The notes beneath the pieces were generated by a model. That model had not been told where the DNA came from, did not search any database, and saw nothing but the letters and a program-made list of their open reading frames with translations. A DNA stretch of 64,000 bases from a plasmid: the sequence record NZ_CP118102.1; one strand, given 5' to 3'. The translations under genes and the position numbers were made by a program. This document shows, one piece after another, positions 29,163 through 50,633 of the stretch; position 1 is the stretch's first letter, and each line of letters opens with the position of its first letter.

Positions 29163-29165
29163 CCC

Positions 29166-29735: not shown

Positions 29736-29817
29736 CTCCTGTTCACTCCTTCAGATGTATTAGTTCTAATAGATCCTAAACTTACACCTTGCTCACCTCC
29801 TTTCAGGTCAGTTTTTT

Positions 29818-30936: not shown

Positions 30937-30983
30937 TTCGTCATCTCCTCTACTCTTCTGCTACCTTTTGATGGAGTAAGCCC

Positions 30984-31634: not shown

Positions 31635-31658
31635 TTAATCCACCTACATATTTTGTAT

Positions 31659-31931: not shown

Positions 31932-32102
31932 GCTTTTTCCCCTTAAAAATTTTAAAGAAATCTAATTAATCTAAATTACAAGACAAATAATATTACTCTC
32001 GATCAAAGCTGATACTTCACCCCTTTTAATTGTATGTATGTTAGTTAATATACTAATATACATATATACTAGTATCAATTATTTTCTTCTGAAAAGTACT
32101 AT

Positions 32103-33883: not shown

Positions 33884-33953
33884 TTAATCCCTCCTAAATG
33901 AAAGAGTTTTAGGGAAGGGGGCTACCCTTCCCTGTATAACCATTTTTGAAATG

Positions 33954-36900
33954 TTAGAATGGAACCTGCGGACTAAAGTCATCTCGACTTGATAAATCGG
34001 CATGATAGAATACAACGTCTCCATCCTGTAAAGTAAATCTGTTACCAAAGGAGTCAAACTTAATTCGCTGAGATCCTTCTAATTGCCATTGATTCATTAA
34101 CGGCGCATTGATGTATTGCAAATGTGGTTTGTTTAGATCACCGTTACGAATGGTTTCGATATCAAAGTTCACGATGATATAGCCATTCTTAAAGAAAATT
34201 GGAGAATTATCATCGAGCCCTCCGTGTGTACGTCCATACTCAGCAATATCTGTCCCAACTTCTACCACATAAGGCTCTGCAGGTAAACTGTATTCCCCAT
34301 ACCAATTCTGAACAGCTGCATTCGCACGTTGGACATTCACAGAAGCTGGCAAGTTTGTTTTAGGACCTATAAAGGTACGTAGTTGCTCTGGAAGCAGCAG
34401 GAGATTATAGCCACCAACTGGAGTTTTTTGCTTGGTATCTTTACTTATAAACTGTTCCGTGTACTCCTGCTTCGTCATCGATCCGAGTTGCCCCGTTGTA
34501 TAGTAATTATCGAACTTAAAACTGGCCGTATCGATCATTTCTTCTGTAGGCACATTCCGAAGTCGATCATTCATAATGACATAGCGCTGTACCTTATCTT
34601 CTTCTGATCCAATCTTCACAAAATTACTCTCATTGGTTTTGTAATAAAGATCTACTGGAAAGCGATACTGACCATCTTTTGATACAAAGTGGAACGTCGG
34701 AGTAATTCGTATTCCATCTTCTTTGCCGAACATATTTCCTTTAGTTTTAAAGTCGAATTTGAAGTGATAACCGGTTTTCACAGCTACATTTTTATAACCC
34801 TCTGCAGGATGACTACCAGGAAGAATTGGCAAAGTATATTGCTCGGAGTTTCCACGAGGAGCACCATCTATGCCGTTCATTCCAACCCAATATGATAAAC
34901 CTGTAGGTAGTGTACTACCTATTTGCGTACGGAAAACGGACTCCCAATTGTAATCAGCTATATCAGTTACTTGAAAATCGTACAGCCGGCCAATCACTTC
35001 GATGGAAACTTCATCGACAGCTACGTGGTTCACTAAGTCAAGATTTGCATCATACTGATATGGTAACTCTGGAGGAGCGTTCTCAGCTATGTTCCTGAAA
35101 TACACCTGATAATCACCTTCATCAACCCATACTGGAAGGAAGAACTCTGTATCAAGCTGATTTACAGGAATATCAATCCAGGTATTCTTTGGATAAAATT
35201 GTGTTCGGCTACTGTTATAAACATCGAATGGAAACTGGACTTGTTTGGTTCTGAAATACTTTGCGTAATCACGATTACCGTAACCTGGATAATTCGTATG
35301 TTGTCCATTCGTCGGTATCCGAACTGTAAATGGTCGATCCAATATGAATGCAGCACGATTATAGTTCGGGTTCGTCTTCTGATTATGTTCGCGGTCATCC
35401 GTTACCGAGGAGTAGTTCACAACGGGCGTATGAACGGTTACGGTATTTATCCCGTATATCGGGAAATTCTTATTACTACCACCGTTAATATTACCTTCCA
35501 TGAGACCATAGTAAATTGTCCCAGAACTTGTTGTATTTGCTCGGTTAGTCTTACTACTACTGATAATGTTCCCAGGCTTATACAACACGTTTTCATTAAT
35601 TTGAGGCGGCTCAGGAATTGTACTCGGCGTTGGTCCGCTTTCATCAACACGGCTGCCACTCATGATAGTAGCTCCGTTAAATACAAGCGAGTCATTCGTC
35701 ACTTCTACCTTCTTAACACCTTCTTCAGCAACGCTCTGCAAGTTTTCACTTGGTGGTGATGGTGGACTCGAATAAGAGCTTCCACCGAAAGATCCTGGCG
35801 GTGCAATAATTGGATTTGGCGGTGATGGCGGATAGAAGGCGCCCGTTTGATCCACTGTAAATTCTGGTGGCTTATACCCCTGTGGGGTGATGCTTATCTG
35901 ATCACCTGGTAATGCGTAATTTTTGAGCTGCCCTTCATCAATTTTGTATACTTCTAAGTTATCAATCACCCAATATGAATAAGGCCGTTCAACTGTATAC
36001 TGTTGCACTACCGTTTCAGGAGTCTGTTGAGGATCCGGAATTGTTGTTGGTTCTCCATTCGGTCCAGGTGGACCTGGTTGACCAGGATCCCAGTGCAATG
36101 TCCAAGTCTTTTCTACATTAACTGTAAAAGTACATACCCCAGACATCTGGACGAAAGAATGTTGAGCAAGGTAGTTTCGAGCCAGGATATTTCCATATAA
36201 GCTCTCTGATGTTGGAATACCTTGTAACACGTCAAATTGTTCACTGCCTCGTTGATCAGCCAAGATTTTAGCTGTTACGACTGGATCCATGTATCGTCCA
36301 TCAATAGTAGTTCCAGGAGTTGGTGCTGTACAACTAGCTTCAGGAATTTCCGGATCAGGCGGCGGTGGATTCCCCTCTTTCTTATAGTAAAAGTTCACAT
36401 AGTAAATAGGGAAGGTAGCATCATACTTAAAGCCACTCGGATCTCCGGGCGTAATTTCTCCACCGCTTGGAGGTGCAACCGTACTTTTTTTATGGCCAAC
36501 GTATGTATATTCCTCGGTGCCTGGTGTGTGGGTGAATCTATAGTCTACGTTTTTCTCAAGCTTCTCTTCCCGATCCTGAAATCCATCTATGTTATTTAGT
36601 CTTTGCCCCGTCGTCGTCCAGTGTTGGACGATGGCTTTTCCTTCTTCTGGTTCAAGTTCAATCGTGAACAGTGTAGGAAAGAAATAACGCCAACCTTCTA
36701 CATTCTCTCCGAAAACTTGGCCGTTTTCAGTTTCTTCTTCAAGCCTCCTATCGACCTGCTTTACAGCTTCCAAAGTCCCATTCAACACGAAAACTTCCTT
36801 CTGCCCGACATTTGTTCCTTTGCCTACAACAGGCGTGTTTCTATAATTATTGTAATTCCTTGTTGAAGTGGCATCTTGATAGTATTGTTTGCGATTTACA

Positions 36901-37277
36901 GCCAATTCTCCCGTTCTCGAAGTTTCAAATGTCTCATCTGCAAGCTCCCAGTTAAAATCAAAAGGTTTAATTCTAATGTCTTTAATCTTACGGCTCGAAC
37001 CAAACGTAAATTCATATGTTCCACCATCTACAACTGCGACTGTATCTCCTGGTTTATGGCCGCCGCCAGTCCATTGCCCCGAATTGTTTTTCCAAACCTC
37101 GTAATATACCATCCCTACGAAGTAGTATAGATTCGGATTGTCCTCGTCCTGAAGAAGGCGATTTGAGCTAATTGGAAAAACTGCTGCCTCGGCCTTCCCT
37201 GGATGAAGTGTAAACACGACGAGAATAGAAGATAGAATAAGTACCGCACTGAGTAAGGAGCTCATCATCTTTTTCAT
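33954..37277 (-). CDS. Large secreted Pro-rich surface protein (1107 aa)
   Basis: Signal peptide. Pro-rich tracts (PGQPGPPGPNGEP; PPSPPNPIIAPPGS...SPPSPPS). No enzymatic motifs recognised. Confidence 0.55.
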   Translation of the reverse strand: MKKMMSSLLSAVLILSSILVVFTLHPGKAEAAVFPISSNRLLQDEDNPNLYYFVGMVYYEVWKNNSGQWTGGGHKPGDTVAVVDGGTYEFTFGSSRKIKDIRIKPFDFNWELADETFETSRTGELAVNRKQYYQDATSTRNYNNYRNTPVVGKGTNVGQKEVFVLNGTLEAVKQVDRRLEEETENGQVFGENVEGWRYFFPTLFTIELEPEEGKAIVQHWTTTGQRLNNIDGFQDREEKLEKNVDYRFTHTPGTEEYTYVGHKKSTVAPPSGGEITPGDPSGFKYDATFPIYYVNFYYKKEGNPPPPDPEIPEASCTAPTPGTTIDGRYMDPVVTAKILADQRGSEQFDVLQGIPTSESLYGNILARNYLAQHSFVQMSGVCTFTVNVEKTWTLHWDPGQPGPPGPNGEPTTIPDPQQTPETVVQQYTVERPYSYWVIDNLEVYKIDEGQLKNYALPGDQISITPQGYKPPEFTVDQTGAFYPPSPPNPIIAPPGSFGGSSYSSPPSPPSENLQSVAEEGVKKVEVTNDSLVFNGATIMSGSRVDESGPTPSTIPEPPQINENVLYKPGNIISSSKTNRANTTSSGTIYYGLMEGNINGGSNKNFPIYGINTVTVHTPVVNYSSVTDDREHNQKTNPNYNRAAFILDRPFTVRIPTNGQHTNYPGYGNRDYAKYFRTKQVQFPFDVYNSSRTQFYPKNTWIDIPVNQLDTEFFLPVWVDEGDYQVYFRNIAENAPPELPYQYDANLDLVNHVAVDEVSIEVIGRLYDFQVTDIADYNWESVFRTQIGSTLPTGLSYWVGMNGIDGAPRGNSEQYTLPILPGSHPAEGYKNVAVKTGYHFKFDFKTKGNMFGKEDGIRITPTFHFVSKDGQYRFPVDLYYKTNESNFVKIGSEEDKVQRYVIMNDRLRNVPTEEMIDTASFKFDNYYTTGQLGSMTKQEYTEQFISKDTKQKTPVGGYNLLLLPEQLRTFIGPKTNLPASVNVQRANAAVQNWYGEYSLPAEPYVVEVGTDIAEYGRTHGGLDDNSPIFFKNGYIIVNFDIETIRNGDLNKPHLQYINAPLMNQWQLEGSQRIKFDSFGNRFTLQDGDVVFYHADLSSRDDFSPQVPF

Positions 37278-37294: not shown

Positions 37295-38242
37295 TTACTT
37301 GAATGGATTAACAATGACAACTGCATAATTCTCTAAGTCGCCATCTTCCAGCAAAATATAATCCGCCTGATTAATTTTGAAGTTTCTCCAACCCTCATAG
37401 CTTTCAATGTATTTTCCAGTTTGGAACTTATCTGACCGACTTACCACAGGATAATGATTCATGGCCGTTTTATCACCGTTATTAATAAAAGCCGCATCTA
37501 AAACTTGACGACCTTTCGCATAATCGTTCTTAACAAGGAATGAAACTGGATTTCCTCTTTGACTGCTTCTAATCTGAACCAAATCATCTCCTGTTACTTG
37601 GTTCTTAACAATATTTAAACTGTAGACTACTTGACTATTTCCCAACTGAATTGGAAGGTCACTTTCCTTAATGATCTTTACTCCTGAATATGCTTTATCA
37701 TTCAAGTTTGTAAATGCACTCTTTGTTTTCGTATACGCCTTGAACTCGCTCAATTTCGTAAGCTTGAATTCCTTATCGTCTGTGCTTCGGAAATCTTTCT
37801 CCCCGATCCAGACCCAGCGGCTGATTTTGTCCCATTCTACTTTTTGACCGAGTCCTTCACTTACGAGACGAATCGGAACAAACGTCCGGTTCTGCTTCAG
37901 GATGATTTTTGTACCATAGTCCTTTTTCTTTCCGTTGACTAAAGCTGTCGTTCGGCCAACTGTCATCTTCACCGTGTGATCCTTACTTGTAATACCTACA
38001 GTTTGAACCTTTCCTGTTTTGGAATAGCTAACTTTAGCTCCGAGTGATTCCGAAACGAAACGGATCGGCACCATCACGCTGCCTTGAGCATCTTGAAATG
38101 GTTTTGCATCTGGAAAACTCATTTTGTTGGTGTTAAGAAGAACTTCTACTTGTTGAGAACTAGCTAAAGCGGACCCGGAAGTGAATCCTAACATTCCAAA
38201 CGCTAGCACACCCGTCATGATAGTTAAAACTGTCTTTTTCAT
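37295..38242 (-). CDS. Secreted protein with copper-amine-oxidase N-terminal-like (stalk) repeats
   Basis: Signal peptide. Repeated VPIRFVSESLG / VPIRLVSEGLG beta-sandwich motifs typical of Cu_amine_oxidN1 domains. Confidence 0.55.
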   Translation of the reverse strand: MKKTVLTIMTGVLAFGMLGFTSGSALASSQQVEVLLNTNKMSFPDAKPFQDAQGSVMVPIRFVSESLGAKVSYSKTGKVQTVGITSKDHTVKMTVGRTTALVNGKKKDYGTKIILKQNRTFVPIRLVSEGLGQKVEWDKISRWVWIGEKDFRSTDDKEFKLTKLSEFKAYTKTKSAFTNLNDKAYSGVKIIKESDLPIQLGNSQVVYSLNIVKNQVTGDDLVQIRSSQRGNPVSFLVKNDYAKGRQVLDAAFINNGDKTAMNHYPVVSRSDKFQTGKYIESYEGWRNFKINQADYILLEDGDLENYAVVIVNPFK

Positions 38243-38446: not shown

Positions 38447-39457
38447 TTATTTATTGTTTTGATTTGTACACACCTTCGGGAAATATCCTTTCATTGCAGC
38501 TTCTTTTTCACTCGAAAACGCTTGTTCTATTCGATATCGAAAGCTACAAGATTCTCTGTAGTAATATTTCAATCCGGTTGAAGGATCCACTGCTGCATAA
38601 ATTACCGGCGCTTTAACCAACCTCCCTCCTCCAAACGCATAATTGTTGTAAAATTGATCACCTATTGGAATCCCCTGGATAAAGGCCATAATTCCGATAT
38701 CATCCACGGTATTGACCCAATCCTCTTGGGATATTGTAGGAAGTGTAAAAGTGTAGCTGATACCACTACGGGTCATAACTTCATTGTGTTTATTGATGAA
38801 ATAAGCTAGGTCTTTTTGAACATTGCTGACAATCCAACTTTTTCTTGCTTCTTCAAACTGAACCGTACTGTTCAGGATCTGAATATCTGTTTTGTTTTGT
38901 AATTCCCATTGGTACCCCTCTATCCATTTTCGGTCAGAAGCGTCAAATGCATAAACGTAACTATCCAGAGTAAAATTCAAACTGTTGCCCTGTGAATCTG
39001 TGTAAGCATATGGTTTTTTAGGACGCCACATATGTTTCATTTCAGTTGTTCCATCAGCATTTTTGTACTCGCTAAGGGTATACAACCAGTACCCATCATA
39101 ATCTAGCACGACTACAGCTGGTATGTAGGAAGCAAGGGTACTTTGTCCAACTGGATCATTCTGTACTTCAAAATTCAAATATAGTGTTTTAAAAAAAGTA
39201 TCGATTGCCTGTTCTTTGTTTGCTTTAAAGTATTTTGAAGACTGATAACCAGCTTCGTATTCTTGCATTTCATTGATGTTTAGCATAAATCCAGCATCTT
39301 GCGCTGCTGTCTTAAGAGCTGCATCATATTTGTCTTCTAGCTGCGCTACGAGCATAAGGTCATTTGTACGCAGATCCAAAACATAGTAGAAAGGGAAAAA
39401 GAAAAGGACAAAGACGATGGCCAGGTTAGTAATCCTCATTGAGTACCATCCCTCCAT
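38447..39457 (-). CDS. N-terminally anchored extracytoplasmic protein (candidate TadE/pseudopilin-like accessory)
   Basis: A single N-terminal hydrophobic helix (ITNLAIVFVLFFFPFYYV); the remainder is soluble. Confidence 0.3.
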   Translation of the reverse strand: MEGWYSMRITNLAIVFVLFFFPFYYVLDLRTNDLMLVAQLEDKYDAALKTAAQDAGFMLNINEMQEYEAGYQSSKYFKANKEQAIDTFFKTLYLNFEVQNDPVGQSTLASYIPAVVVLDYDGYWLYTLSEYKNADGTTEMKHMWRPKKPYAYTDSQGNSLNFTLDSYVYAFDASDRKWIEGYQWELQNKTDIQILNSTVQFEEARKSWIVSNVQKDLAYFINKHNEVMTRSGISYTFTLPTISQEDWVNTVDDIGIMAFIQGIPIGDQFYNNYAFGGGRLVKAPVIYAAVDPSTGLKYYYRESCSFRYRIEQAFSSEKEAAMKGYFPKVCTNQNNK

Positions 39458-39980
39458 AATTCATATAGATCTTTGGCACATCCCCGCTGTTACCTACCAA
39501 TATAAAATCTTGCATTATAGTTGACATCGTTCGATTTTTATTTTTGACAGAAACGGTAATAAAATCATTTAGTGCGAGCTTATATTTTCTTGAATCGTTG
39601 TCTGCAGGAATATTAGTTTCTGGAAAAAGAACCTTCATGATTTCTTCGGTATAATGACCTTCATAATATGTATCAAAAGAGTTTTGGAATGTTGCTGGAT
39701 TTGCTGGGTCTGAATAGACAGGATTATACTTTTTGTGCATGTGCTCTAACGTTACGTCGTACACATTCCCTGTCTCCCCAAGTTTCTTATTAAACTGCAG
39801 ATACATCTCAGGTGAGATATATCCTTTCGTTCTTACTGCGTCTACAAATTCGGTAACTGTCTGATGGACTACAGTTTGAATCTGGTTATCATGACGTACC
39901 GTGGACTGATACAATGGATACAACATCATTAATATCAGAGCAATAAATCCAGCTACAAGTTTAGAAAATATGTCCATCAA
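39426..39980 (-). CDS. N-terminally anchored small protein (pilin-like accessory)
   Basis: MMDIFSKLVAGFIALILMMLYPLY anchor; overlaps the neighbouring genes. Confidence 0.3.
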   Translation of the reverse strand: MMDIFSKLVAGFIALILMMLYPLYQSTVRHDNQIQTVVHQTVTEFVDAVRTKGYISPEMYLQFNKKLGETGNVYDVTLEHMHKKYNPVYSDPANPATFQNSFDTYYEGHYTEEIMKVLFPETNIPADNDSRKYKLALNDFITVSVKNKNRTMSTIMQDFILVGNSGDVPKIYMNYGGMVLNEDY

Positions 39981-39988
39981 TTCATCCC

Positions 39989-40411
39989 CTAGTTAAAAAT
40001 GATCTTTGTTAATTCGCCTTTAGTATTTCTCTCATACACAACGCTATATGATTTATTGGGATCGATGTGAGAAACATCGGTATTATCAATAGTCAAATTT
40101 TTAGTAAAAAGTATGTCTTCAACTTCAATGTCTGCGTTGATTTCTTGAATTCGAAAGATACTGTAAATGACTTGTGCTCCAGAATATAATTCCTCGCCAA
40201 CCTCTTGAATTGTACTGAATACGCGATGATCTTCATTGGCTCGGACCTGAGGCAAATTGTTTGTACTTTGTTCTTGCGAAACTAGTCCCCAGAGTGCAAA
40301 AGATGCTGCAGATATAAAGATTAATATTGCAGTTGCTAAAGAAATGGAAGTTTCGGTATTCTCATTCATGAACAAGATCTCCCTTAATTTTATGGGAGGG
40401 ATTCCCTTCAA
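39989..40411 (-). CDS. Pilin-like small protein with an N-terminal hydrophobic segment
   Basis: A charged leader, then SISLATAILIFISAASFALWGLV. Confidence 0.3.
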   Translation of the reverse strand: MKGIPPIKLREILFMNENTETSISLATAILIFISAASFALWGLVSQEQSTNNLPQVRANEDHRVFSTIQEVGEELYSGAQVIYSIFRIQEINADIEVEDILFTKNLTIDNTDVSHIDPNKSYSVVYERNTKGELTKIIFN

Positions 40412-40442
40412 GAGCCTAGGAATCCCATGTAATATCTTTTAA

Positions 40443-40901
40443 TCATCCTTGAGTAAAAATGATTCCGCGTACGACATTGTTCTTATCGTAAACAACTTTA
40501 GAGTAGAACTTTCCGGATGGGTTGATATAGTTGCTGCTTGTTTGATCTTGTGCAGTGGTAATACTAATATTTTTTGTATCTCCTACGATTTCACCAGCAG
40601 CATTAAATGCATTTCCGTAAGTCATACTTCCACCTTTACCTGTAACTACTGTTAATCCAAATTGATCTTGGTTCATATACTGACGCACAGCATTCAATAC
40701 TTGGCTACCAGTCATGGACGAATTATCGTAGTTGTTGTACTCCGATTGTGATAATGTTTGTTGAATTCCTGTCATTTTTTCTTGGCCAGTTTTCGCTCCT
40801 GCTTGGAAGACACCGAAAAGTAAAACTACCAATGTAATTAGTGCGATTGTCAGCATTATACCTCCGGATAATCGCAATCCGGTATTTGTTGATTCTTCCA
40901 T
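40443..40901 (-). CDS. Pilin-like protein (candidate major subunit of the Tad-like filament)
   Basis: Leader MEESTNTGLRLSGG, then a 20-aa hydrophobic helix. Located immediately downstream of the TadBC-like gene. Confidence 0.35.
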   Translation of the reverse strand: MEESTNTGLRLSGGIMLTIALITLVVLLFGVFQAGAKTGQEKMTGIQQTLSQSEYNNYDNSSMTGSQVLNAVRQYMNQDQFGLTVVTGKGGSMTYGNAFNAAGEIVGDTKNISITTAQDQTSSNYINPSGKFYSKVVYDKNNVVRGIIFTQG

Positions 40902-40919
40902 TTTCTCTCTTCCCTTCGG

Positions 40920-42962
40920 CTAAATATTCATTATTTGTTGCATCGTCTGATCCATTTGTCCAATGGATACATAAATCATAGGAAACAATAGGTATAAAAA
41001 GATCAGCAGATATGCAGGTGCCCAACCACAAATTCTTCCCCACACAACTTTTTTACTAATGAGTCGATTCATGCGATCAATCTTTTGTTCCCTATGAAAC
41101 TCTTGCTCCATTTCCAAATCATCAAAAGCCTCAATAAGTGGTATCTTTTCAAGTGCCAGCTGCAGTCGATTAACGATTCTCACAAATGAGATAAACGGTG
41201 CATCATCTTTAAGTTCTTCAAGTGCCCTTTCTGGACCACTGTCAAAGTTAGCGATGCACTTCCGTAGTGTGGGCTTAAATATTATGCTATATCTCTCCAT
41301 CCATTCGAGGATTGACTGCACATTCATTCGTTCAAATTGACTAAGAATAGAAATCACCACATGGAATTGATCTACTTCATTTTGAATTTCCATGATTCTC
41401 ATCTTTCTCTGGAATTGAGTCAACCATAGTGGAATGAAGAATCCGATACAGGCACCACCGATAGCAATGAGCAGCTCCCACCACCTAAAGTACTGATTGT
41501 TGAGAACTTCTATTTTCTCAATGATCCTGGTCACGGTATTATTTAAAGCAGCGCTTTCTGATGGAGCATCTGGCATTAATATTACCCTTTCTAAAACTGC
41601 TTCCCTGGTAAGAGTATCAGCCCCTTTCAAGTCACGAATTAGTGCATTATCAAAGTCTGTAAGTTCTTTTCCTCTTAATTTTTCTTCATCCGTCATGTAG
41701 CCCATCAAGTGTGATGCCTCTGTTGTTAGATTGGTATAAATTTGATGACTTGTATTCCAATGAAGAAAAAAGGAAAGCACGATGACCCCGATAAAGCAGG
41801 TCAAACTCACAACTATTCGTTGTATATAGAACCACTCAATCGTAAGTGGTGAGTTTGATTCTTTTAATAAAAGCGTTACTTCATAATGTTTTCTTGTTCT
41901 TTTAGAAGGTACAACACGGTCAATAATCCAACTTACACCAGGCCATTCATATACATGCTTCTCCCAATTTCGTCTAGATGTGGTCGTCATGTATCTTGAT
42001 TCCTCAATCTCACTAATCTTGCGGACAAGCAAATAGAAAATAATGCACGCTGAATAAATGATTATCCGCAAAATATAGCCAATATTTCCGGAGTAAAATT
42101 GATTCATAATCGGGAAGTAAGTTGTTGCCCAGGTTTCAATCGGAAAAGTGAGGAGAATCGGTAATAATGCGAACAAAGACAAGTTACTAAGCTTATAACT
42201 TAGACGTCTTCTTCTTAGGACATCATCCCTGATCTCTCGAACCAGCTTGCTTAGAGCATTAAGAAACATAGATCCCTTAGAAACCAAACGGTCACCGTAC
42301 TCCATTACTAAAAATGAGACACCAGCGAACATTTTTAAGTACCTATTAGGAACTACTGTATAGAAAGCTTCAAGGTCTTTCTTAGGATCTTTTGCAGTGA
42401 GTATCTCATGAATACGCTCCGCCTGAAGTTTCATATCATGAGGGGAACGTTGTGCCCCTTGGTAAATCGCTTCATCAACCAATTTCAATTCTTGATAGTC
42501 ATGACGAACTTCTTCAAGATAATTTACTAACTGTACAAGGAGCCGATCTTCAACACGCTTGACAAAAACATTAATGAGTAAAGTATTAAGAACGATAACA
42601 CCCATGATTGAAAAGAGGACCATTACAAGGTTTTTACTGAAGATAGCCATAAGCGCAATTACAAGAAAGGAAATGGCAAGAACCTTCAGTGTAATCCGCA
42701 TTGTCTCTCTTCTCAGTGTAAGCTCGTCATAAGGATTAATGGTTGCGAGACGAAACCGAACCTGTCTGATGAGTTTACCTAGAACAGGTAATTTCGATAA
42801 CTCAACGTAAGACTTCTGATAGAACACGAGAAGTCTCTTATTGCTCTCCTTCTTAGACCCAAATGTCGATGTCTTATTTTTTCGAACTGAGACATAGTGG
42901 TAAACGCTTGATAAGACTAAAGCTATCAAACAAATAATCAACAATATTTGGATGTTAATCAT
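40920..42962 (-). CDS. Polytopic membrane protein, probable fused TadB-TadC (two T2SS-F-like modules)
   Basis: 680 aa, about twice TadB length, with two TM clusters separated by cytoplasmic helical domains. Overlaps the upstream ATPase gene by 8 nt. Confidence 0.45.
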   Translation of the reverse strand: MINIQILLIICLIALVLSSVYHYVSVRKNKTSTFGSKKESNKRLLVFYQKSYVELSKLPVLGKLIRQVRFRLATINPYDELTLRRETMRITLKVLAISFLVIALMAIFSKNLVMVLFSIMGVIVLNTLLINVFVKRVEDRLLVQLVNYLEEVRHDYQELKLVDEAIYQGAQRSPHDMKLQAERIHEILTAKDPKKDLEAFYTVVPNRYLKMFAGVSFLVMEYGDRLVSKGSMFLNALSKLVREIRDDVLRRRRLSYKLSNLSLFALLPILLTFPIETWATTYFPIMNQFYSGNIGYILRIIIYSACIIFYLLVRKISEIEESRYMTTTSRRNWEKHVYEWPGVSWIIDRVVPSKRTRKHYEVTLLLKESNSPLTIEWFYIQRIVVSLTCFIGVIVLSFFLHWNTSHQIYTNLTTEASHLMGYMTDEEKLRGKELTDFDNALIRDLKGADTLTREAVLERVILMPDAPSESAALNNTVTRIIEKIEVLNNQYFRWWELLIAIGGACIGFFIPLWLTQFQRKMRIMEIQNEVDQFHVVISILSQFERMNVQSILEWMERYSIIFKPTLRKCIANFDSGPERALEELKDDAPFISFVRIVNRLQLALEKIPLIEAFDDLEMEQEFHREQKIDRMNRLISKKVVWGRICGWAPAYLLIFLYLLFPMIYVSIGQMDQTMQQIMNI

Positions 42963-44856
42963 AACTTACATGCCCCCAATGTTTGTTTAGGAAGGCTTTG
43001 AAATCACTTGCATCCTTAGGAGGCATAATCGCAAGCATTTGCTGTACTTTTTCCTTGGATAGAGGCTCACCAGCTACATATTTACCGTCCAGGTACTCTA
43101 CAATGTTACGATCTTTCCATACGCGTCCTGTTTTCCGCAGGAGTTCCTCTTTTTTAATTGCTATAAGTGCATCCATCTTGGACTCGAGAGTATCTCCGGA
43201 CTTGATCTCTAGAAGTTCTGAGTCATCATGCTCTTGATAAATACATTCAGTTATACGTTCAATATAACGGTGACCAGTGTTGCTTCTTTCAACATGGACA
43301 TCCAACTCAATGACTTTAGCCACCTGCTCTTCAGCAGTTTTTTGATCCGTAGCTGCTTGAGTGTTAATTAATGAATTTCGCAATGACCACATAAGGTCTC
43401 TAAAAGTTTTGGCATGGTGAGTAAAAACCGTAAATAAACTTGCGACTTGTCCCATCTTAATCATCCATGCAGCCACCTCATCAGTAGCGACTTCTCCTAA
43501 TAGATTGACGGTTCCATCTGTTTTCTTCTGCAAATCAAGGCCTTGTTGACCAGTTATATAGTCCGTTTCACGAAATGCGATTGTATTCCGCTGTGGATAC
43601 AGTTTCCGCAGGTTAAGTTCAAAAGCCATTTCTTGAATGCGTAAGTTATATACTGCTGGGATATACTTGACTGCTGCCATCATAAGAGACGTTTTACCAG
43701 AACCTTGTGGTCCAGTAATAGCAGTAATGCGAGCACCTTTCATTAGAAACTTCATCAACTCTCTAGGGAGCTCTGCATTTTCTGCTGTTTCATCTGATAT
43801 CAGATTTTCTAAAGACATGTTTGGAAGGTCAAATTTTCGAACCCAGAATGCCCAGCTTTCTGAAAAAGGCGGTCGGACTACAACAACCCGCGAACCATCT
43901 TTCAACTCATTTACTTTGAAACCTGTCTGTTCTGTCATTTGACTCGGATTGTCATATTTATAGATGTTGTTGACGATTCTCTTTAGCTCCAACTCAGAAT
44001 TAAAACTGAGAAAAGATAAATGAATTGATTTTCCTTTATAGAAAATCCATACACTTTCGTATCCGTGGTGTTTAATTTTTTTCATAGAGTTCATCAAATC
44101 CACTTCATCATCAAGCAGCTGCATTGAGCTAGGCACACCGGAAACCCCACCAGAAACGCCATCAACTCTCATGTTAAGGATGTCATCAATAACACCATAT
44201 CCTTTGTACTGTGAGTACACTCTCTGAACCACAACACTCAATCTATCCTGGAAATCCAGTTTAGTGTTCGCAAGTTCTGTCTTAAAGACCTTATTGATTT
44301 CTTCACTTGTGATAATGTAAGATTCTGTCGTTCCGTCTTCAATTTCTGATTTTAATTCATCGAGTTGATACTGACTTATCAGCTGCTCCAGTCCCTTAAA
44401 TCCGAACTTCTTTTTATATAAATGAAGAAGGATATCAAACTTATCTTGATCACTTAATTTTTTGGGATCATTAAATGGGATGATCCAGTTAATATTCTCT
44501 TCATTGATCCCATACTTCCGTTCAAGTAGATCGTATATGTATTGCTTGAGATATACTTTCTCTTGAATATCACCGGTATTCGCGTTTTTAAGGGCTTTTT
44601 CCAGTTCCACTACTATTGCTTTTCGTCGTTCATACTCTTCATCAGATAAACCTAAATCCAGTAAATTCGTATTGATAAAATCACTTATCGTCCTTTTTAC
44701 AAAGCCGAGTATCTGATCGATTTCATATCGTTTCCTGTCCATTTCATCTTTTTTAGATACTTGCTGGACGGGTTTGCGTCGTAATTTTAAAGTCAAAAAC
44801 AATATAAGACCGATCAAAATGAGGACGATAATCAGATAGTTTAAAGTCGTCCCCAT
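42955..44856 (-). CDS. CpaF/TadA-type (VirB11 superfamily) secretion ATPase with an N-terminal membrane anchor
   Basis: Walker A ITGPQGSGKTS, RIQEMAFEL (Asp box-like), and LGEVATDE...TVFTHHAKT (Walker B/His box). N-terminal TM LIIVLILIGLILFLTL. Confidence 0.65.
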   Translation of the reverse strand: MGTTLNYLIIVLILIGLILFLTLKLRRKPVQQVSKKDEMDRKRYEIDQILGFVKRTISDFINTNLLDLGLSDEEYERRKAIVVELEKALKNANTGDIQEKVYLKQYIYDLLERKYGINEENINWIIPFNDPKKLSDQDKFDILLHLYKKKFGFKGLEQLISQYQLDELKSEIEDGTTESYIITSEEINKVFKTELANTKLDFQDRLSVVVQRVYSQYKGYGVIDDILNMRVDGVSGGVSGVPSSMQLLDDEVDLMNSMKKIKHHGYESVWIFYKGKSIHLSFLSFNSELELKRIVNNIYKYDNPSQMTEQTGFKVNELKDGSRVVVVRPPFSESWAFWVRKFDLPNMSLENLISDETAENAELPRELMKFLMKGARITAITGPQGSGKTSLMMAAVKYIPAVYNLRIQEMAFELNLRKLYPQRNTIAFRETDYITGQQGLDLQKKTDGTVNLLGEVATDEVAAWMIKMGQVASLFTVFTHHAKTFRDLMWSLRNSLINTQAATDQKTAEEQVAKVIELDVHVERSNTGHRYIERITECIYQEHDDSELLEIKSGDTLESKMDALIAIKKEELLRKTGRVWKDRNIVEYLDGKYVAGEPLSKEKVQQMLAIMPPKDASDFKAFLNKHWGHVSYD

Positions 44857-45698
44857 TAAGACACTCCTTTCTCAATACTTTTAATCTTTGTGTTGACTCC
44901 TACTTCCGTAAGAATGAATTCCGCTGCTCTACGTACTTCCTGCATGAAGTAATAATTATCATGATTTCTTGTGATGTATCGATTTTTCATGAAGAATCCC
45001 TTTATATCTCCATCATTGTAGTGATCTCTGAAATTAGTATTGTAAGGAATTGAGAGAATTGGACCTTTGTAACGGTATTTATTGGCTATGTTTTTAATTT
45101 TGTATTTTGATTCAACGTCATACTGACCAACCATCAAAACGTGAGGCTTGTTATGCAGTTCCTCAGGCCAGTAGGTTTTACTTTCAAAGTACTTTTCTAA
45201 AACATTTATGTTCTGGTTAACACATACAACTATTAGATCCGAACTCTGAAGCATGGCTTTTCCTACTTCGCTATTCGTTCCACTATGAAGATCTAGCAGC
45301 ATGGCATCATAATAAGTGCTTGCCTTCTCATATATAATTTTCAATACATCCGTCGATTCTTCAAATTGTGTTTGGTTAGGTTTTCCACTATTCTTCAAGA
45401 AATCAAGGCGATCCCTTTCAATGAATAACGAGTTGTTCCTGATGGAATCATTTTGTAACTTGCCTGAACGGACAGCTCGCTCTAAAGCATCAATACCAAT
45501 TCCTGTGAAATCAAAAAATTCTGGATTAGATTGTTGCAAAGCCTTTCGGAAAGCCTGTTCTAAGGTGACGTCGGACCATTGAGGCTGCGAACAAAGAGTT
45601 CGGATCTGATATTCCATTCCAACCAGTGCTGCTATCGCAGCGGTATTACTTGTAACTCCTAAGCCATGCTGGTATCCCCAAAATACAATTTGCCCCAT
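44856..45698 (-). CDS. Degenerate ParA/MinD-like NTPase-fold protein
   Basis: VFWGYQHGLGVTSNTAAIAAL resembles a decayed deviant Walker A. DLHSG is Walker B-like. Confidence 0.35.
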   Translation of the reverse strand: MGQIVFWGYQHGLGVTSNTAAIAALVGMEYQIRTLCSQPQWSDVTLEQAFRKALQQSNPEFFDFTGIGIDALERAVRSGKLQNDSIRNNSLFIERDRLDFLKNSGKPNQTQFEESTDVLKIIYEKASTYYDAMLLDLHSGTNSEVGKAMLQSSDLIVVCVNQNINVLEKYFESKTYWPEELHNKPHVLMVGQYDVESKYKIKNIANKYRYKGPILSIPYNTNFRDHYNDGDIKGFFMKNRYITRNHDNYYFMQEVRRAAEFILTEVGVNTKIKSIEKGVS

Positions 45699-45700
45699 CC

Positions 45701-46381
45701 TTAACCTCTCCTTTCAGTTTGCTTCCATAGATTTAAAGTTTCTTTTGGGCTCTGCTCAAGAATTCGTGATACGATTGACCTGATCACATCTTTGTATGGT
45801 CCTGAAATCCCCTTAAGTTTTACCGTACTGGAGAATTGATTATTGGTTTTTCTTGTTAAGTCACGCTCGTCCGGATAGTAAGTCAAAGTATCCTCCCAAT
45901 GGATAGGGTGTCTTTCTAAGAGATCATTAAGATAGGACTCGTTATGAGTACCATTGACCTCAAATAATACTTTAGTAAAAGGGTAGAGCTCAGAAATCAT
46001 CTTTTCTTGGAAGTATGATTGAAGGAGCTTTGCATTACTCTGCATAACCGGATTCTCAAATGAAGAGACCAAGTAGTACATGTCGGCTAACGGCCAATTT
46101 CTCAGGGCCTCTTCATTTTCTGCATCTATTAGTACGATATCGTACTCACCTTTTTTTAGATGCACTTCCAAATCACTGTAGCTTTTTAATCCTTCAGCAA
46201 CATCAAAGTGATCATACTCCTGAAGAGTAGTATTCATCTCCACTTTCGGATAGGCATGCATATATCTACTAGTTAATGTGCAGTCAGCTATCAAAACTCT
46301 CTTCACTTGTGATACTAGCTTGGCAATGTAAAACAACAGATCAGTTTTATCGTAATTTCCTACAAAGAGAATATGCTTCAT
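45701..46381 (-). CDS. Hypothetical protein in the Tad-like operon
   Basis: 226 aa. Weak ParA-like N-terminus (ILFVGNYDKTDLLFYIA). No confident motif. Confidence 0.3.
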   Translation of the reverse strand: MKHILFVGNYDKTDLLFYIAKLVSQVKRVLIADCTLTSRYMHAYPKVEMNTTLQEYDHFDVAEGLKSYSDLEVHLKKGEYDIVLIDAENEEALRNWPLADMYYLVSSFENPVMQSNAKLLQSYFQEKMISELYPFTKVLFEVNGTHNESYLNDLLERHPIHWEDTLTYYPDERDLTRKTNNQFSSTVKLKGISGPYKDVIRSIVSRILEQSPKETLNLWKQTERRG

Positions 46382-46390
46382 AACTGCCTC

Positions 46391-47374
46391 CTACTCTGTT
46401 ACCGTAGCATCAACTGGGACACTCACATTGTTATCTGTGAAAACAGCTTCTGAGTTTTGGGGAGTTTGCTGCTGATCGAGCAATGAATTCCCCGTAACTG
46501 TTGAGGTCTCAGCTACCTCTTCAGTTTCCTTCTTGGTTCCGTTCTTGCCGTTACTATAATCCTGTCTTTGCTTCTCAGTCATAGATTGCAAATCACTTTC
46601 AAGCTTCTGACGATATCTTCGTTCTAGCTCCGTTGTTGCAACATCTATAATATTGGGATCAGAATCGATCAAATCTAAGACCTTTTCATTAGCAGGGTAC
46701 GTAATAGCAGCCTCATTTTGCATGTGTGGATCCACATAGGTTAATGCGTAAATTGTGGCATCATTGATATAAGCGTCCACAATGGCACTAGACATTGTTA
46801 AGATTTCTTGCTCGTCCATCTCATACCAAATGGTTCCATTGGCTAAGTCTTTAACTTTTTTCTTGGATAGTACTATGTAGTCTTGGCCTGTTGGAAACTT
46901 AACGCGGACATCGACAAATTCATCCTTCTCCAGTTTGCTTGGAAGCTCGATAAGGCGAAACTCTTGGTTTCTCAAATCATCAGGTGTTATTCCATCTTCA
47001 TAAAGCATCGAGTCGGTGATAGGTGTATTCTTTTTCAAATTAATCTTTGTGTACTTTCCTACAATATCATTAGCATGCATAACGTTTTCTGGTACTGCTC
47101 TTTTCGGAACATTTATGGTTACAAGGTCCGATTCATGTAGAATATCACCAGCCTCGTAATCGTCTGCAGCTACCTGAACGGCTATTGTTTCTTCTTCTAA
47201 CTGCATTTGTGCAAAGTCACGTTGCTCCTCAAGAATGTTTCTTTCAGTTTCGTTTTTACCCTCGATGTGTTTGAAATAGAAGTAGCCGATTGTAACACAA
47301 ATCAGTAGTACAACAATTCCGCCGATGGAGCCGGCTAAAATCAATTGTTTTTGGCGAAATCTTATTTTTGACAT
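46391..47374 (-). CDS. CpaB/RcpC-like pilus assembly protein (SAF domain) with an N-terminal TM
   Basis: TM anchor, then a SAF-like segment (AGDILHESDLVTINVPKRAVPENVMHANDIVGKYTKINLKKNTPI). Confidence 0.45.
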   Translation of the reverse strand: MSKIRFRQKQLILAGSIGGIVVLLICVTIGYFYFKHIEGKNETERNILEEQRDFAQMQLEEETIAVQVAADDYEAGDILHESDLVTINVPKRAVPENVMHANDIVGKYTKINLKKNTPITDSMLYEDGITPDDLRNQEFRLIELPSKLEKDEFVDVRVKFPTGQDYIVLSKKKVKDLANGTIWYEMDEQEILTMSSAIVDAYINDATIYALTYVDPHMQNEAAITYPANEKVLDLIDSDPNIIDVATTELERRYRQKLESDLQSMTEKQRQDYSNGKNGTKKETEEVAETSTVTGNSLLDQQQTPQNSEAVFTDNNVSVPVDATVTE

Positions 47375-47411
47375 GAATTTTCTCCCTTCATCTCATAACT
47401 GCCGTTCAAAA

Positions 47412-48797
47412 TTAGTCCTGAAAGAATGTCTGCATCTTCTTTTTAAGTAGTGAGAGTCGTTGATGTTGGTGCAGCTTCAATATTTCCTCTAATGTTGAGT
47501 TAACTACCTTATCCTTCTGATATGGATCTGTTTGAAACGGCAAAGAATGTATTTTCCTCTTTGGTAATTTTTTTCTTATATCATCAACCGTCTGTTTTGA
47601 AGCCATAGGAACGCACAATTTCCACCTGCTTTGATCAAGGTCAATTTGTTCCTCAAAGAAGTTCATAATGTCTTTCTGTTTCCATTCACTTCCTGACCCA
47701 ACGACGATGGATATATTTGCTCGTAAAAATTCTTCATAGCAATAACTTTCTTGATAGGCTCCCATATCAATAATGATGAAAGCGTAATTTCCTGAGTGAT
47801 AATGATAAAGTTTAAGATCCTTGACGGACTTAGCATATCTAACTCCGTCAATTGTAAATGTTGGATTTTTGAGTATTGTTGGATTATCTATACCTTCATA
47901 GGCAGCTTCAATTTCTACAAAATCGTTTGAATCGTTTGCTTCTATTAAAAGAACAGGATAATTTTCACTCGCTAGATAGTTAGCTAGCATAATGGCAGTA
48001 TGAGTACAACCGACACCACTTTTTACACCAGTTACTGCAATTACAGCTGTTCCAACAAACCTTTCTTTTTTACGCTTAACATTTTTTTGTAGTACAGGAG
48101 CAAAATCAAGTTCCTCTGTACGAATAACATCTAGATTTTTTTGCTTTTTTCCTTCGATAATCGCCTTTTTCTTCTCATCTATCTTTTCAAATAACTTGGC
48201 ACTTGTTTCAGAGATTTGACGACTAAATTCTTTTGCAGATTCACTAAATCGGGAAACTGGTTGATTGTCTAAAGAAGCATTCTCAAGAGATCCATCTTCC
48301 TTCTCAGTTGTTTCATCAGAGATTATTTCAACTTCAGTAGTGAATGTCTCTTCCTGGTATTCTTCCTTGCCTTCATCAAGTTTCTCACCAAAGCAATTCT
48401 CCTGAGGGTTCTTTAGTACAGGAACTCGAACGCTATGTCCTAAGGCTTCAAGGATTCTTACTTCAACAATTCCGGGTTCAAGATCCATATAATTAAGGCA
48501 AGTAATACCTTCATCCATTAAGCTTGAAATCAATTCATCATCTTCTCGATGGTAAATCAGCATAATTGTTGAACCAGGACGCTCAATTCGTATCTTCGCT
48601 ACGAGTCGCTTAAATGCATCGTCAGACCGTATAACATTCTCCATGAAGACAACAATATTTGATTCAATTGACTCCCACTGAGGAACAAAGAAATCTAAAG
48701 AATCAATTGTTCTGACTATTCTCCCAATATCACTAAGCTCATCAGCAAACCATTCTGCTTCATCCCTATCCGGGGTAGCTAAGAATATTCGATTCAT
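47412..48797 (-). CDS. CpaE/TadZ-like ParA-family ATPase with an N-terminal receiver-like domain
   Basis: A pseudo-receiver N-domain, then AVTGVKSGVGCTHTAIMLANYLA (deviant Walker A) and IIDMGA (Walker B). Confidence 0.5.
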   Translation of the reverse strand: MNRIFLATPDRDEAEWFADELSDIGRIVRTIDSLDFFVPQWESIESNIVVFMENVIRSDDAFKRLVAKIRIERPGSTIMLIYHREDDELISSLMDEGITCLNYMDLEPGIVEVRILEALGHSVRVPVLKNPQENCFGEKLDEGKEEYQEETFTTEVEIISDETTEKEDGSLENASLDNQPVSRFSESAKEFSRQISETSAKLFEKIDEKKKAIIEGKKQKNLDVIRTEELDFAPVLQKNVKRKKERFVGTAVIAVTGVKSGVGCTHTAIMLANYLASENYPVLLIEANDSNDFVEIEAAYEGIDNPTILKNPTFTIDGVRYAKSVKDLKLYHYHSGNYAFIIIDMGAYQESYCYEEFLRANISIVVGSGSEWKQKDIMNFFEEQIDLDQSRWKLCVPMASKQTVDDIRKKLPKRKIHSLPFQTDPYQKDKVVNSTLEEILKLHQHQRLSLLKKKMQTFFQD

Positions 48798-48863: not shown

Positions 48864-49772
48864 TTAGCTAAGATTATAGTATTGCTTCTCCTCATTCTGA
48901 AATATGAAAAAGCTTGTTTTGAGATTTTTCTGATGGTTGTACAGATCATTATCAGTTAGAAACCAAACATAATCTGAAATACCTTCTTGCATGATAAGCT
49001 TTTGTGCTAAAGTGGCCTTCTCTTCAGTAGAGAGAAGTAAGATGAGTATGCCACCACCTTCAGTACTTTTAAGAAAGTTTTTGTAGAACTGAGCTTGATA
49101 TCTTAAGGTTTTCAACCATTTCTCGTCTTCGCGATGAACAACCAAGTAGAATGAAAGCATTTTCCCCTTTGGAGTTCGAAGTATATAACGAGCCATGGGT
49201 ATTTGTTGTTCTTCTTCAATTTTTAAAATAGGATGAAATTCAAAGTGTGTCATTTTGAAATTCTCTCGAAGTTGAATATACAACTCGTTAGTCACTGAAT
49301 ATTTCATTCGATATAGCATGGTCATAGGCCGTGTAGCCCTCGGATCTCTATTACCTAACACTAAGCCGTATCGATATTTCAATACATCAGCACCGCTAGC
49401 ACCTAACTCATAAAAACTCTGACGATTCTCACTCGGACTTGAATAAGTTTTCCATTGAATGCGCCGAATCATTCCATATTTCAACAGCTTACGAACTCTC
49501 TTTTTAACTGTTTCCTCTCTCTCTGCTTCAGGAAAGAAAATTCTTTGTAATTGAGATAGCGTAATCCAGCGGTGTACAAAAAGAAATCTTACAATTTCAA
49601 TATCCCTGTCTGTGATCCAACCATTTTTTATTTTTTCTTCGATGTAATAAAACTCATGTCTTGTTAGCTGATCCATCCCTGTAACGTACGCATATGGATC
49701 ATCCCAAATCGGTTTTGGTTGGAGTGTCGGTTCTTCCGCTGAATCTAACAACGGAGACACTTGAAATTCCAT
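48864..49772 (-). CDS. Replication-relaxation family protein (Replic_Relax-like wHTH)
   Basis: LTRHEFYYIEEKIKNGWITDRDIEIVRFLFVHRWITLSQLQRIFF...KKRVRKLLKYGMIRR, the pattern of plasmid replication-relaxation proteins. Confidence 0.5.
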   Translation of the reverse strand: MEFQVSPLLDSAEEPTLQPKPIWDDPYAYVTGMDQLTRHEFYYIEEKIKNGWITDRDIEIVRFLFVHRWITLSQLQRIFFPEAEREETVKKRVRKLLKYGMIRRIQWKTYSSPSENRQSFYELGASGADVLKYRYGLVLGNRDPRATRPMTMLYRMKYSVTNELYIQLRENFKMTHFEFHPILKIEEEQQIPMARYILRTPKGKMLSFYLVVHREDEKWLKTLRYQAQFYKNFLKSTEGGGILILLLSTEEKATLAQKLIMQEGISDYVWFLTDNDLYNHQKNLKTSFFIFQNEEKQYYNLS

Positions 49773-49784: not shown

Positions 49785-50633
49785 TTAATAAATTTCATGA
49801 GGAAATTTGCAAATTCTTGATTTAATACGCCTTCTCTCCACATCAATGTTTCTTATTTTCACACTCACTCGTTTTCCAATAAGTGAACCATGAGAGGGAA
49901 GCTTTGGTGGAAACCAAGCAAGAGTCTCAACGCCAGGTGTCAGCTTAACGAAAATCCCAACATTTTCAACGACACGTGTTATTTCCCCGGGATAAAAATT
50001 GCCCACGCCAAAATTCTCTCGGACACGATTCCATGGGTCTTCTAACAACTCTTTACGGGATACTCGTACTTGCTGTTTCTCCCTATCAATTTTCTTGATT
50101 TTAACAGTAAGCGTAGTGCCGAGTGGTACAAGGTTCTTAGCTGAATGCGTCCAATCATATTCATAATCTTGAATGGCTAGCACACATGAAACCCCTTTTA
50201 CTAAAACATACAAACGTTCCTCTTCCCATCCGGAAACTGTTCCTGTAACAACATGTCCTTCTTCAGCAGTCTCCCAAAATTCCTCCTGAAGTTCATCAAT
50301 TGCTTGCACACGAGAAAGCAAGACAATTCCCTTTTCTTCATCAAAGACCTGAAATTGTTCAGGGTCTAGCCCCATTTTCTGTACATCCAAAACCATAAAA
50401 TCAATTCGATGATCAATAAAACCTACAAGAGAACGGAATTTATGTTTATCAAATTGATCCTCATAAATTAACCCTTTAAGACCATTATTTAAATGAACAA
50501 GCACGCACTCCATTTTCTTGCCATGAGGTTCGTGTACCTCTACACCGCTCACTAAACCTTGGTGAATTTGTTTTCGACGTAAAGACGTCCTGTATTCCTG
50601 CATTGGATTTGATGAAAGTGATTGAAAACTCAC
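49785..50633 (-). CDS. Protein with tandem S1-like nucleic-acid-binding domains
   Basis: GHVVTGTVSGWEEERLYVLVKGVSCVLAI and GEITRVVENVGIFVKLTPGVETLAWFP resemble S1/OB folds. Confidence 0.35.
   Translation of the reverse strand: MSFQSLSSNPMQEYRTSLRRKQIHQGLVSGVEVHEPHGKKMECVLVHLNNGLKGLIYEDQFDKHKFRSLVGFIDHRIDFMVLDVQKMGLDPEQFQVFDEEKGIVLLSRVQAIDELQEEFWETAEEGHVVTGTVSGWEEERLYVLVKGVSCVLAIQDYEYDWTHSAKNLVPLGTTLTVKIKKIDREKQQVRVSRKELLEDPWNRVRENFGVGNFYPGEITRVVENVGIFVKLTPGVETLAWFPPKLPSHGSLIGKRVSVKIRNIDVERRRIKSRICKFPHEIY

Follow-up and report, generated by a model that had tools for sequence, protein, structure and literature searches.

The closest described counterpart of the locus considered here is a gene cluster of the TANB77 gut Clostridia (proteins 927-938), which was annotated as a putative Tad pilus on the basis of AlphaFold2 (AF2) models and Foldseek searches (Nat Commun 2024;15:10726, PMC11680825). 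It encodes a CpaB of 358 amino acids (aa), a TadZ-like protein of 231 aa (protein 928), a CpaE-like protein of 280 aa and a TadA/CpaF of 640 aa with one transmembrane helix (TMH), this ATPase having sequence homology to 'CpaF of Roseburia or Paenibacillus'; in addition, there is a 693-aa protein with eight TMHs, the halves of which are TadC-like and TadB-like, and seven 'pilin-like' proteins with one TMH each, the last showing a TadE/PilV-like N-terminal quarter by Foldseek (PMC11680825). Previously, tad-like loci had been described in Firmicutes whose tadA, tadC, tadZ and rcpC are distant from those of other Clostridial tad loci and which contain no protein with a prepilin motif (Imam et al. 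2011, PMC3244431). Here, we analyzed a 64,000-nucleotide (nt) stretch of plasmid DNA from the sequence record NZ_CP118102.1 (the window), in which ten intact, co-directional open reading frames (ORFs), named A to J, fill positions 38447-48797 on the minus strand. With a probability of roughly 70%, these encode a highly divergent Tad-type (type IVc-like) filament machine of a single-membrane, thick-walled cell, which would produce a pilus or pseudopilus for adhesion or aggregation. A previous interpretation of the same DNA without database searches (the sequence-only reading) had already proposed a Tad/Flp-like operon, and the combination of a CpaF-type ATPase, a SAF protein, a TadZ-like protein, a platform-like protein and a set of pilin-like proteins agrees with that proposal.

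In order and size, products B to F of the window (327/226/280/633/680 aa) correspond to those of TANB77 (358/231/280/640/693 aa). Loci in metagenome-assembled genomes (MAGs) of gut Clostridia share the TANB77 size series (e.g., 357/231/280/645/667/163/170/145/141/235/177/580), the link between the two being by gene size only. By tblastn, these MAG loci show 46-49% identity to window E and 34-35% to window F, and match B, C, D, I, and J with E = 1e-7 to 1e-31. Window I matches their ~177-aa gene (E = 1e-11 to 1e-17) and window J a part of their final gene, of 560-620 aa. Based on the size series together with the MAG matches, the window operon belongs to an already noted, uncharacterized kind. 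The architecture can thus not be considered undescribed, as had been claimed, since a putative Tad pilus cluster that agrees with it in gene sizes, gene order and fusions has been published (PMC11680825). Given that the AF2 and Foldseek analysis of TANB77 arrived at the same assignments, it provides independent support for a Tad-type machine (PMC11680825).

The distribution of the family was surveyed by scanning one genome per species for relatives of F, which yielded at least 563 loci. The best 80 of those, with 10 kb on either side, were searched by tblastn with the window proteins, and all counts out of 80 given here refer to this set. Relatives of F are present in all 80 loci, those of E in 79, of B and D in 78 each, of I in 74, of J in 73, of C in 69, of G in 64 and of H in 33. 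The succession of CpaB, ParA-like protein, ATPase, platform-like protein and small bitopic proteins is the Tad order and is conserved across the 80 loci; as the same order is found on plasmids of Bacilli and Clostridia, its conservation is far above chance. Many of the 80 loci lie on Mb-scale Paenibacillus chromosomes, and others belong to Saccharibacillus, Tumebacillus, Brevibacillus, and MAGs of gut and rumen Clostridia. Paenibacillus chromosomes and gut Clostridia MAGs together account for most copies. Full-length homologues of E and F were found on 32-34 large plasmids, from Paenibacillus, Lysinibacillus (pBsph), Alkalihalophilus, Cytobacillus, Cohnella, Thermobacillus, Sporosarcina, Clostridium and Butyrivibrio. 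The plasmid loci follow the order A-B-C-D-E-F-G-H-I-J, wall-binding protein, DUF5704 protein, GGDEF protein, and a GGDEF gene after the module is also carried by plasmids of P. polymyxa, A. pseudofirmus and C. botulinum. Two Paenibacillus urinalis plasmids (190 and 206 kb) match the operon span of the window with 100% identity, and the window F gene is 100% identical to one on a 253-kb P. provencensis contig. In the host species, a chromosomal paralogue exists beside the plasmid copy (loci L018 and L081). Two operon copies per genome were observed in P. provencensis (L018, L081), P. campinasensis (L019, L080) and P. glucanolyticus (L032, L083); the paired copies differ strongly in the identity of their F to window F (e.g., 100% and 35%), and those of P. 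provencensis are located on a plasmid-sized and on a 3.4-Mb contig, respectively.

Within the window operon, D/E, E/F, and I/J overlap, gaps of 2-9 nt separate C/D, B/C, and H/I, and gaps of 18-37 nt separate A/B, F/G, and G/H. The packing is therefore tight, but because of the latter three gaps the description of all genes as translationally coupled was slightly overstated.

The placement of the ATPase E (42955-44856, 633 aa) was obtained with a family profile made from six members and searched against the PDB, in which CpaF was recovered at 1.7e-15, archaeal GspE at 4.6e-5, FlaI at 3e-4 and VirB11 at 1.4e-3, CpaF being ahead of VirB11, PilT and GspE by at least ten orders of magnitude. A phmmer search with E alone also retrieved CpaF from the PDB (1.3e-7), E residues 262-544 being aligned to residues 85-366 of Caulobacter CpaF, and the Walker A motif (GPQGSGKT), the Asp box, the Walker B Glu and the His box are all kept. 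By these profile comparisons, E is a predicted secretion ATPase of the CpaF/TadA clade and not a VirB11, in line with what the sequence-only reading had suggested. If the operon were instead part of a type IV secretion system (T4SS), E would be a VirB11-type ATPase, F a VirB6/TcpH-like channel and the bitopic proteins VirB8-like. In the NCBIfam comparison with the single E sequence, the VirB11 model (3.5e-6) is only tenfold worse than the TadA-family model (5.4e-7), and some of the operon plasmids are typed 'MPF_T' by MOB-suite; however, the family profile places CpaF some 12 orders of magnitude ahead of VirB11, the SAF/CpaB and TadZ-like partners are characteristic of Tad systems, most genomes have neither VirB4 nor a type IV coupling protein (T4CP) at the locus, and the window has separate Tcp-type T4SS genes. 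The profile gap decides the VirB11 alternative for E in favor of Tad, and a T4SS identity of the operon is extremely improbable. Besides its CpaF-like core, E comprises an N-terminal transmembrane (TM) helix, ~240 aa that are specific to the family and, at the C-terminus, ~90 additional aa. The TM helix is present in four of six aligned homologues, is missing in the C. botulinum copy, and is not found in A. pseudofirmus E when read from the annotated start. Thus, of the proposed N-terminal TM anchor with an extra domain of ~350 aa, the anchor was recovered, although it is not universal, and the additional part is smaller, ~260 aa including the TM helix.

Protein B (46391-47374, 327 aa) is bitopic, with an N-terminal TM helix and a SAF domain. 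The Pfam models SAF and ChapFlgA both match at 32 bits, above their cut-offs of 21 and 23.8 bits, and the best NCBIfam match is TIGR03177 (pilus_cpaB; 6e-8, under its cut-off). B is accordingly predicted to be a CpaB/RcpC-like SAF protein, the SAF match above the Pfam cut-off being in agreement with the earlier assignment. The set of ParA-like proteins was recovered as well, yet the one best matching the TadZ/CpaE position is D (44856-45698, 280 aa) and not A, as had been assumed. Using the ATPase of the more canonical Tad locus on the Thermoanaerobacterium plasmid pTHETHE01 as reference for the TadZ position, D was matched by hhalign with a probability of 95.8% (E = 6.9e-9); D further matches the ParA structure 3ea0 (E = 0.004) and, by hhalign, A (64%), so that its best match is that of a putative TadZ/CpaE-like, degenerate ParA-family protein. 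The first gene product, A (47412-48797, 461 aa), begins with a receiver-like domain in which, by eye, no conserved phospho-acceptor Asp is seen, followed by an acidic linker and a C-terminal domain of ParA/MinD fold with a degenerate Walker A (GVKSGVGCT) that lacks the Lys. Pfam AAA_31 and CbiA fall just under their cut-offs for A, its family profile recovers the structures of PF-32, Soj and MinD at 3e-6 to 7e-3, and a comparison with Rhizobium CpaE showed likeness at the P-loop only. The small cytoplasmic protein C (45701-46381, 226 aa) has the motifs ILFVGxxDKTD...VLIxD and YDxVLxDxD and reaches MinD (4v02) with E = 0.1 only; the hhalign comparison of C with D was not significant, and C would be ParA/MinD-like at the motif level only. 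In 54 of the 80 loci, an A-type degenerate ParA domain is fused to a Ser/Thr kinase (e.g., L015 4143-5663, L016 3968-5425). The first gene thus carries a Ser/Thr kinase domain in chromosomal copies and a receiver-like domain in the window plasmid copy, and its signaling input module appears to have been swapped between copies.

Protein F (40920-42962, 680 aa) is polytopic and all-helical (AF2 model, predicted local distance difference test score 82). In profile comparisons, its two halves correspond, in order, to the two unfused membrane proteins encoded in each of two further Tad-like loci from Firmicutes. In one of them, F residues 121-314 align with a protein named 'T2SS F family' by the NCBI annotation pipeline (PGAP; E = 2.9e-4) and residues 499-666 with the partner of that protein (E = 4.2e-4); in the other, C. 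botulinum pCBH, residues 139-227 and 341-671 align with the membrane-protein pair with probabilities of 42% and 86%, respectively. The pCBH and pTHETHE01 loci thus act as bridges in the hhalign comparisons of F and D. A direct hhalign comparison of F with Rhizobium TadB and TadC gave nothing, as did an internal-duplication test between its N- and C-terminal halves, and no NCBIfam model supports the name 'T2SS F family' that some F homologues bear at source. The matches are weak, yet mutually consistent, and constitute moderate evidence for a platform; F is quite probably a fused TadB/TadC-like platform protein, as the proposal of a 680-aa TadB-TadC fusion had it. The neurotoxin-type plasmids of group I C. 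botulinum and C. sporogenes (including Loch Maree and Ba4 657) carry a smaller and different Tad-like locus, found at pCBH 29638-36177 (L008) and on 13 related plasmids, whose unfused membrane proteins also escape Pfam T2SSF.

The four remaining products, G (40443-40901, 152 aa), H (39989-40411, 140 aa; 126 aa from the PGAP start at 40369), I (39426-39980, 184 aa) and J (38447-39457, 336 aa; 330 aa in PGAP), share one layout, in which a short N-terminus leads into a single hydrophobic helix and then a globular domain. Their alignments and the AF2 model of G, in which an N-terminal helix of 54 residues precedes a beta domain, are in keeping with the suggested four N-terminally anchored pilin-like proteins. 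Conservation in G is highest in the N-terminal helix, and the middle varies; several loci have two G paralogues, and the family comprises 1483 clusters at 50% identity, for 49 representatives of which Pfam found no relevant family. Among 132 G-family representatives, the N-terminus reads M-[E/D]-N-x-x-K-[A/G]-[L/I/V] before ~20 hydrophobic residues, which resembles a class III signal, though not convincingly. We infer from these features that G is a candidate major pilin-like subunit. H is a small, fast-evolving bitopic protein; I carries a conserved Pro at about residue 22 when numbered from Met1; and J, the largest bitopic pilin-like protein, has D/N at position 5, gave no match in the PDB and might serve as a tip or minor subunit. 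NCBI and UniRef give G and dozens of related proteins the name 'ABC transporter permease' without family support, a label that looks like a propagated misannotation.

Several observations weigh against a Tad-type machine. In the ten window proteins, searches of Pfam, NCBIfam, PADLOC and PHROGs gave only sub-threshold matches or P-loop noise, with the exception of SAF: Pfam T2SSE reaches 15.4 bits on E, under the cut-off of 24.9 bits, TIGR03819 is likewise under its cut-off, and F and 34 of its homologues have no Pfam match, T2SSF never being found. The model of F has no Foldseek match in the PDB. No Flp or TadE Pfam matches were obtained with the ten window proteins and the G-family representatives, and G to J lack the canonical Flp motif of a short leader with Gly at -1, followed by Glu at +5 and Tyr at +6; the candidate -1 residue of G is A or G in ~60% of the 132 representatives, with K at -2 in ~60%, and position +5 is never acidic/Glu. 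The annotation of the 190-kb plasmid NZ_CP118110.1 lists no prepilin peptidase, none occurs in the Pfam neighbor lists of four distinct chromosomal loci, and a crude scan for its motifs detected none in the window and 97 loci. Finally, no filament has been seen for any family member, and the TANB77 study has no electron microscopy and shows neither filament nor processing (PMC11680825). The absence of TadV from the window had been recognized before and extends to the annotation of the whole plasmid and to the crude motif scan. Calling the Tad operon 'complete' was, however, too strong, as neither a TadV nor a Flp-type pilin motif was found.

G to J might be assembled without any prepilin peptidase, their N-termini already resembling mature pilin helices. 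This is considered because of the Pro at ~22 in I, the D/N at position 5 in J, the head of 6-8 residues with a weak K-[A/G] in G, and because no A24 peptidase is linked to the loci examined; the helix features of I and J would fit leaderless, 'already mature' pilin helices, or any bitopic protein, and we regard the idea as doubtful. If true, the family, with at least 563 loci in species-representative genomes, would form a branch of the type IV filament superfamily that needs no prepilin peptidase, and the plasmid copies, with their DUF5704, wall-anchor and cyclic di-GMP (c-di-GMP) accessories, could be a transferable aggregation module. The missing peptidase, together with the degenerate Walker A of three ParA-like proteins and the failure of all curated models, would also suit a decaying, non-functional Tad remnant hitch-hiking on the plasmid. 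On the other hand, the ten ORFs are intact, the catalytic motifs of the ATPase are kept, and hundreds of genomes of Bacilli and Clostridia preserve these degenerate features, pointing to a derived design under purifying selection; decay is thus very improbable. Among other candidates, a defense system had no PADLOC support, a phage module had no PHROG support, and a plasmid partition system was rejected on account of the degenerate ParA Walker A and of a membrane-machine operon that is also chromosomal.

If the operon does encode such a divergent Tad-type machine, E would be held at the membrane by its own TM helix and dock on the platform F, and the TadZ-like D, together with C and with A through its signaling domain, may recruit, position or gate this motor. 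B would form an extracytoplasmic collar. ATP hydrolysis would extract G from the membrane, allowing it to polymerize via its conserved N-terminal helix, with H, I, and J as putative minor or tip subunits. The product would most likely be a surface pilus or a short pseudopilus for adhesion/aggregation.

Downstream of J, on the same strand, lie genes for a secreted wall-binding protein with Cu_amine_oxidN1 (37295-38242; Pfam 3e-28), a secreted DUF5704 protein of 1107 aa (33954-37277; Pfam 1.7e-58), a GGDEF diguanylate cyclase (32768-33883; Pfam 5e-37) and an HD phosphohydrolase that is a possible c-di-GMP phosphodiesterase (32103-32768; Pfam HD_5 7e-27). The first two are recurrent accessory genes, and within the 80 loci DUF5704 was found in 23, GGDEF in 6 and HD in 2. 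The DUF5704 protein has no relative in the PDB, and an Rfam scan found no c-di-GMP riboswitch near the operon. Given that a host-matched wall-binding protein and DUF5704 recur directly downstream, G to J could form a short piston that delivers or displays these two proteins, i.e., a pseudopilus export or wall-crossing device of T2SS/Com-like type instead of a long pilus for adhesion; four distinct pilin-like genes do resemble a pseudopilin set, and there is no Flp-like minimal pilin. Both presumed clients, though, have ordinary Sec-type N-termini that need no special exporter, DUF5704 is missing within 10 kb in 57 of the 80 loci, and the duplication and variability of G are more what would be expected of an exposed major subunit, which makes such a device unlikely. 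As accessories of a surface filament, the wall-anchored protein, DUF5704 and the c-di-GMP pair probably modulate or decorate the machine.

The gene after J (window 37295-38242, L002 15566-16810, L003 18396-19622, L004 18759-19532) codes in each case for a secreted wall-binding protein, the anchor of which follows the wall chemistry of the host: Paenibacillus has Cu_amine_oxidN1, Lysinibacillus and Alkalihalophilus have SLH, and C. botulinum has choline-binding repeats. Outside these anchor domains, the proteins from different hosts show no homology. An EssC-like FtsK/SpoIIIE ATPase directly follows J in a small number of genomes of Paenibacillus and Tumebacillus (L013 15074-19479; L021, L022, L024, L035), accompanied in three of four tblastn loci by a WXG100 protein; these are type VII secretion hallmarks. 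The DUF5704 protein is a single 1107-aa ORF in the window and is represented by two overlapping coding sequences in NZ_CP118110.1 (8541-11865), which implies a frameshift in that strain or another isolate behind the window.

Upstream of the operon, genes for a replication-relaxation protein (Replic_Relax), an S1-domain protein and a T4CP are encoded on the same strand, and TcpC-like, TcpE and VirB4-like genes lie on the plus strand beyond ~60 kb, the VirB4-like gene being cut by the window end. These flanks, i.e., adhesin-like secreted proteins, a c-di-GMP pair and T4CP/VirB4 genes, are as previously stated according to Pfam and the plasmid annotation. The inference drawn from them, a co-inheritance with a Firmicute T4SS, is not supported. 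A T4CP or VirB4 occurs within 10 kb in only 3 of the 80 loci (T4CP in two, VirB4 in one), including the contig of the window itself; the operon is missing from related Paenibacillus plasmids whose VirB4 is 60-72% identical, and the window VirB4 type is found on 677 plasmids against 34 for F. Chromosomal copies from two genera share housekeeping flanks (Fpg, thioredoxin, FtsJ-type methylase, thiamine pyrophosphokinase and pyruvate dehydrogenase) with neither mobile-element genes nor a T4SS among them. Taken together, the linkage in 3 of 80 loci, the chromosomal copies and the VirB4 plasmids lacking the operon show that the two modules are separable. Their adjacency looks incidental, a feature of this plasmid lineage rather than a new conjugation apparatus.

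The thin pilus of the IncI1 plasmid R64 is a plasmid-encoded type IVb pilus that aids conjugation in liquid; its pil system includes a dedicated prepilin peptidase, PilU, and is linked genetically to transfer. By analogy, the plasmid copy could be a dedicated mating-aggregation pilus aiding the neighboring Tcp/Tn916-type T4SS by stabilizing the contact between donor and recipient. The window operon directly follows the T4CP, S1, and replication-relaxation genes, with Tcp-like genes within 12 kb; T4CP, S1, and relaxation genes are upstream also in L018 and L036, and S1 and relaxation genes without T4CP in L027 and L029. Furthermore, the operon resides on large plasmids of at least ten genera, and the pBsph-like p1593 is experimentally conjugative, pBsph having VirD4, VirB4, and VirB6 homologues and a 'pilus assembly ATPase' (PMC13239906, PMC4363355). 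However, no T4SS gene is found within 14 kb of the operon on pBsph, pBpOF4-01, and pPPM1a, and, considering also the rare linkage, the operon-free VirB4 plasmids and the copies amid housekeeping genes, a mating function is quite improbable.

Other features of the region were noted in passing. The best sigma-70-like promoter match of the region (TTCAGA-17-TATAAT, 48873-48901, minus strand, a consensus match only) lies upstream of A, and the operon interior has no convincing terminator. An S1-domain protein is encoded near Tad-like loci on unrelated plasmids of Paenibacillus (window 49785-50633, minus strand), Butyrivibrio (pCY186, L005 7932-9200) and on pTHETHE01 (L012 10460-11326), and a pair of S1 and replication-relaxation genes occurs in four genome loci, two of which have a T4CP too. 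Just downstream of the HD/GGDEF pair, a surface-protein cluster (26004-30936, minus strand) contains, by PGAP names, a 1052-aa RCC1-repeat protein, a WxL-domain protein and a DUF916 protein. A c-di-AMP (ydaO-type) riboswitch (74 bits, 8552-8686, plus strand) is directly followed on its 3' side by an ORF (8692-9171) that PGAP names C40 family peptidase. A group II intron D1-D4 domain (94 bits) is present at 306-448 on the minus strand, and group II intron reverse transcriptases are annotated elsewhere on the plasmid record.

The main value of the analysis is corrective, as no new conjugation architecture has to be assumed. The family itself is large and functionally uncharacterized, with F at no fewer than 563 loci and G in >1,400 clusters at 50% identity; neither G nor F has a Pfam model, and curated Pfam and NCBIfam models miss E. 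One gut Clostridia member has previously been linked to the response to immunotherapy. The plasmid copies of Paenibacillus and Lysinibacillus are in culturable, tractable hosts and thereby offer a route to the product, the need for a peptidase, and a role in aggregation or transfer.

With the canonical Tad systems (Aggregatibacter Tad, Caulobacter Cpa), the window operon shares the CpaF-clade ATPase, the CpaB-like SAF protein, the TadZ/CpaE-like ParA, the putative platform and the gene order, a Rhizobium locus having been compared. It differs from them in that TadB and TadC would be fused and are unseen by T2SSF, in an ATPase that is membrane-anchored with a large N-terminal addition, in three ParA-like proteins instead of one, and in having no TadV, no pilin with the Flp G/xxxxEY motif, no TadE/F Pfam matches and, as expected for a monoderm, no secretin. 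The loci of Imam et al., which are likened to the window by description, were reported with tadV, whereas none was found in the window (PMC3244431). The pCBH/pCLJ-type and pTHETHE01 Tad-like loci are also located on large plasmids and have the same series of CpaB, ParA-like protein, ATPase, two membrane proteins and small proteins, pTHETHE01 in addition having Cu_amine_oxidN1 and S1-domain proteins nearby; the pCBH and pTHETHE01 loci differ in their separate TadB- and TadC-like genes, an ATPase of 412-468 aa and Flp-sized small genes, and hhalign found nothing between G or I and the DUF4320 protein or the other small protein of the pTHETHE01 Tad locus. R64 and the window both have a type IV filament operon on a plasmid alongside a T4SS, but that of R64 is tied to transfer, while the window family is mostly chromosomal and without T4SS linkage. 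Compared with TANB77, to which it corresponds in gene order and sizes, the window operon is plasmid-borne in a Bacillus-class host, begins with the extra gene A and has four pilin-like genes instead of seven, and it is bordered by wall-binding, DUF5704, GGDEF and HD genes on its 3' side and by T4CP and relaxation genes on its 5' side.

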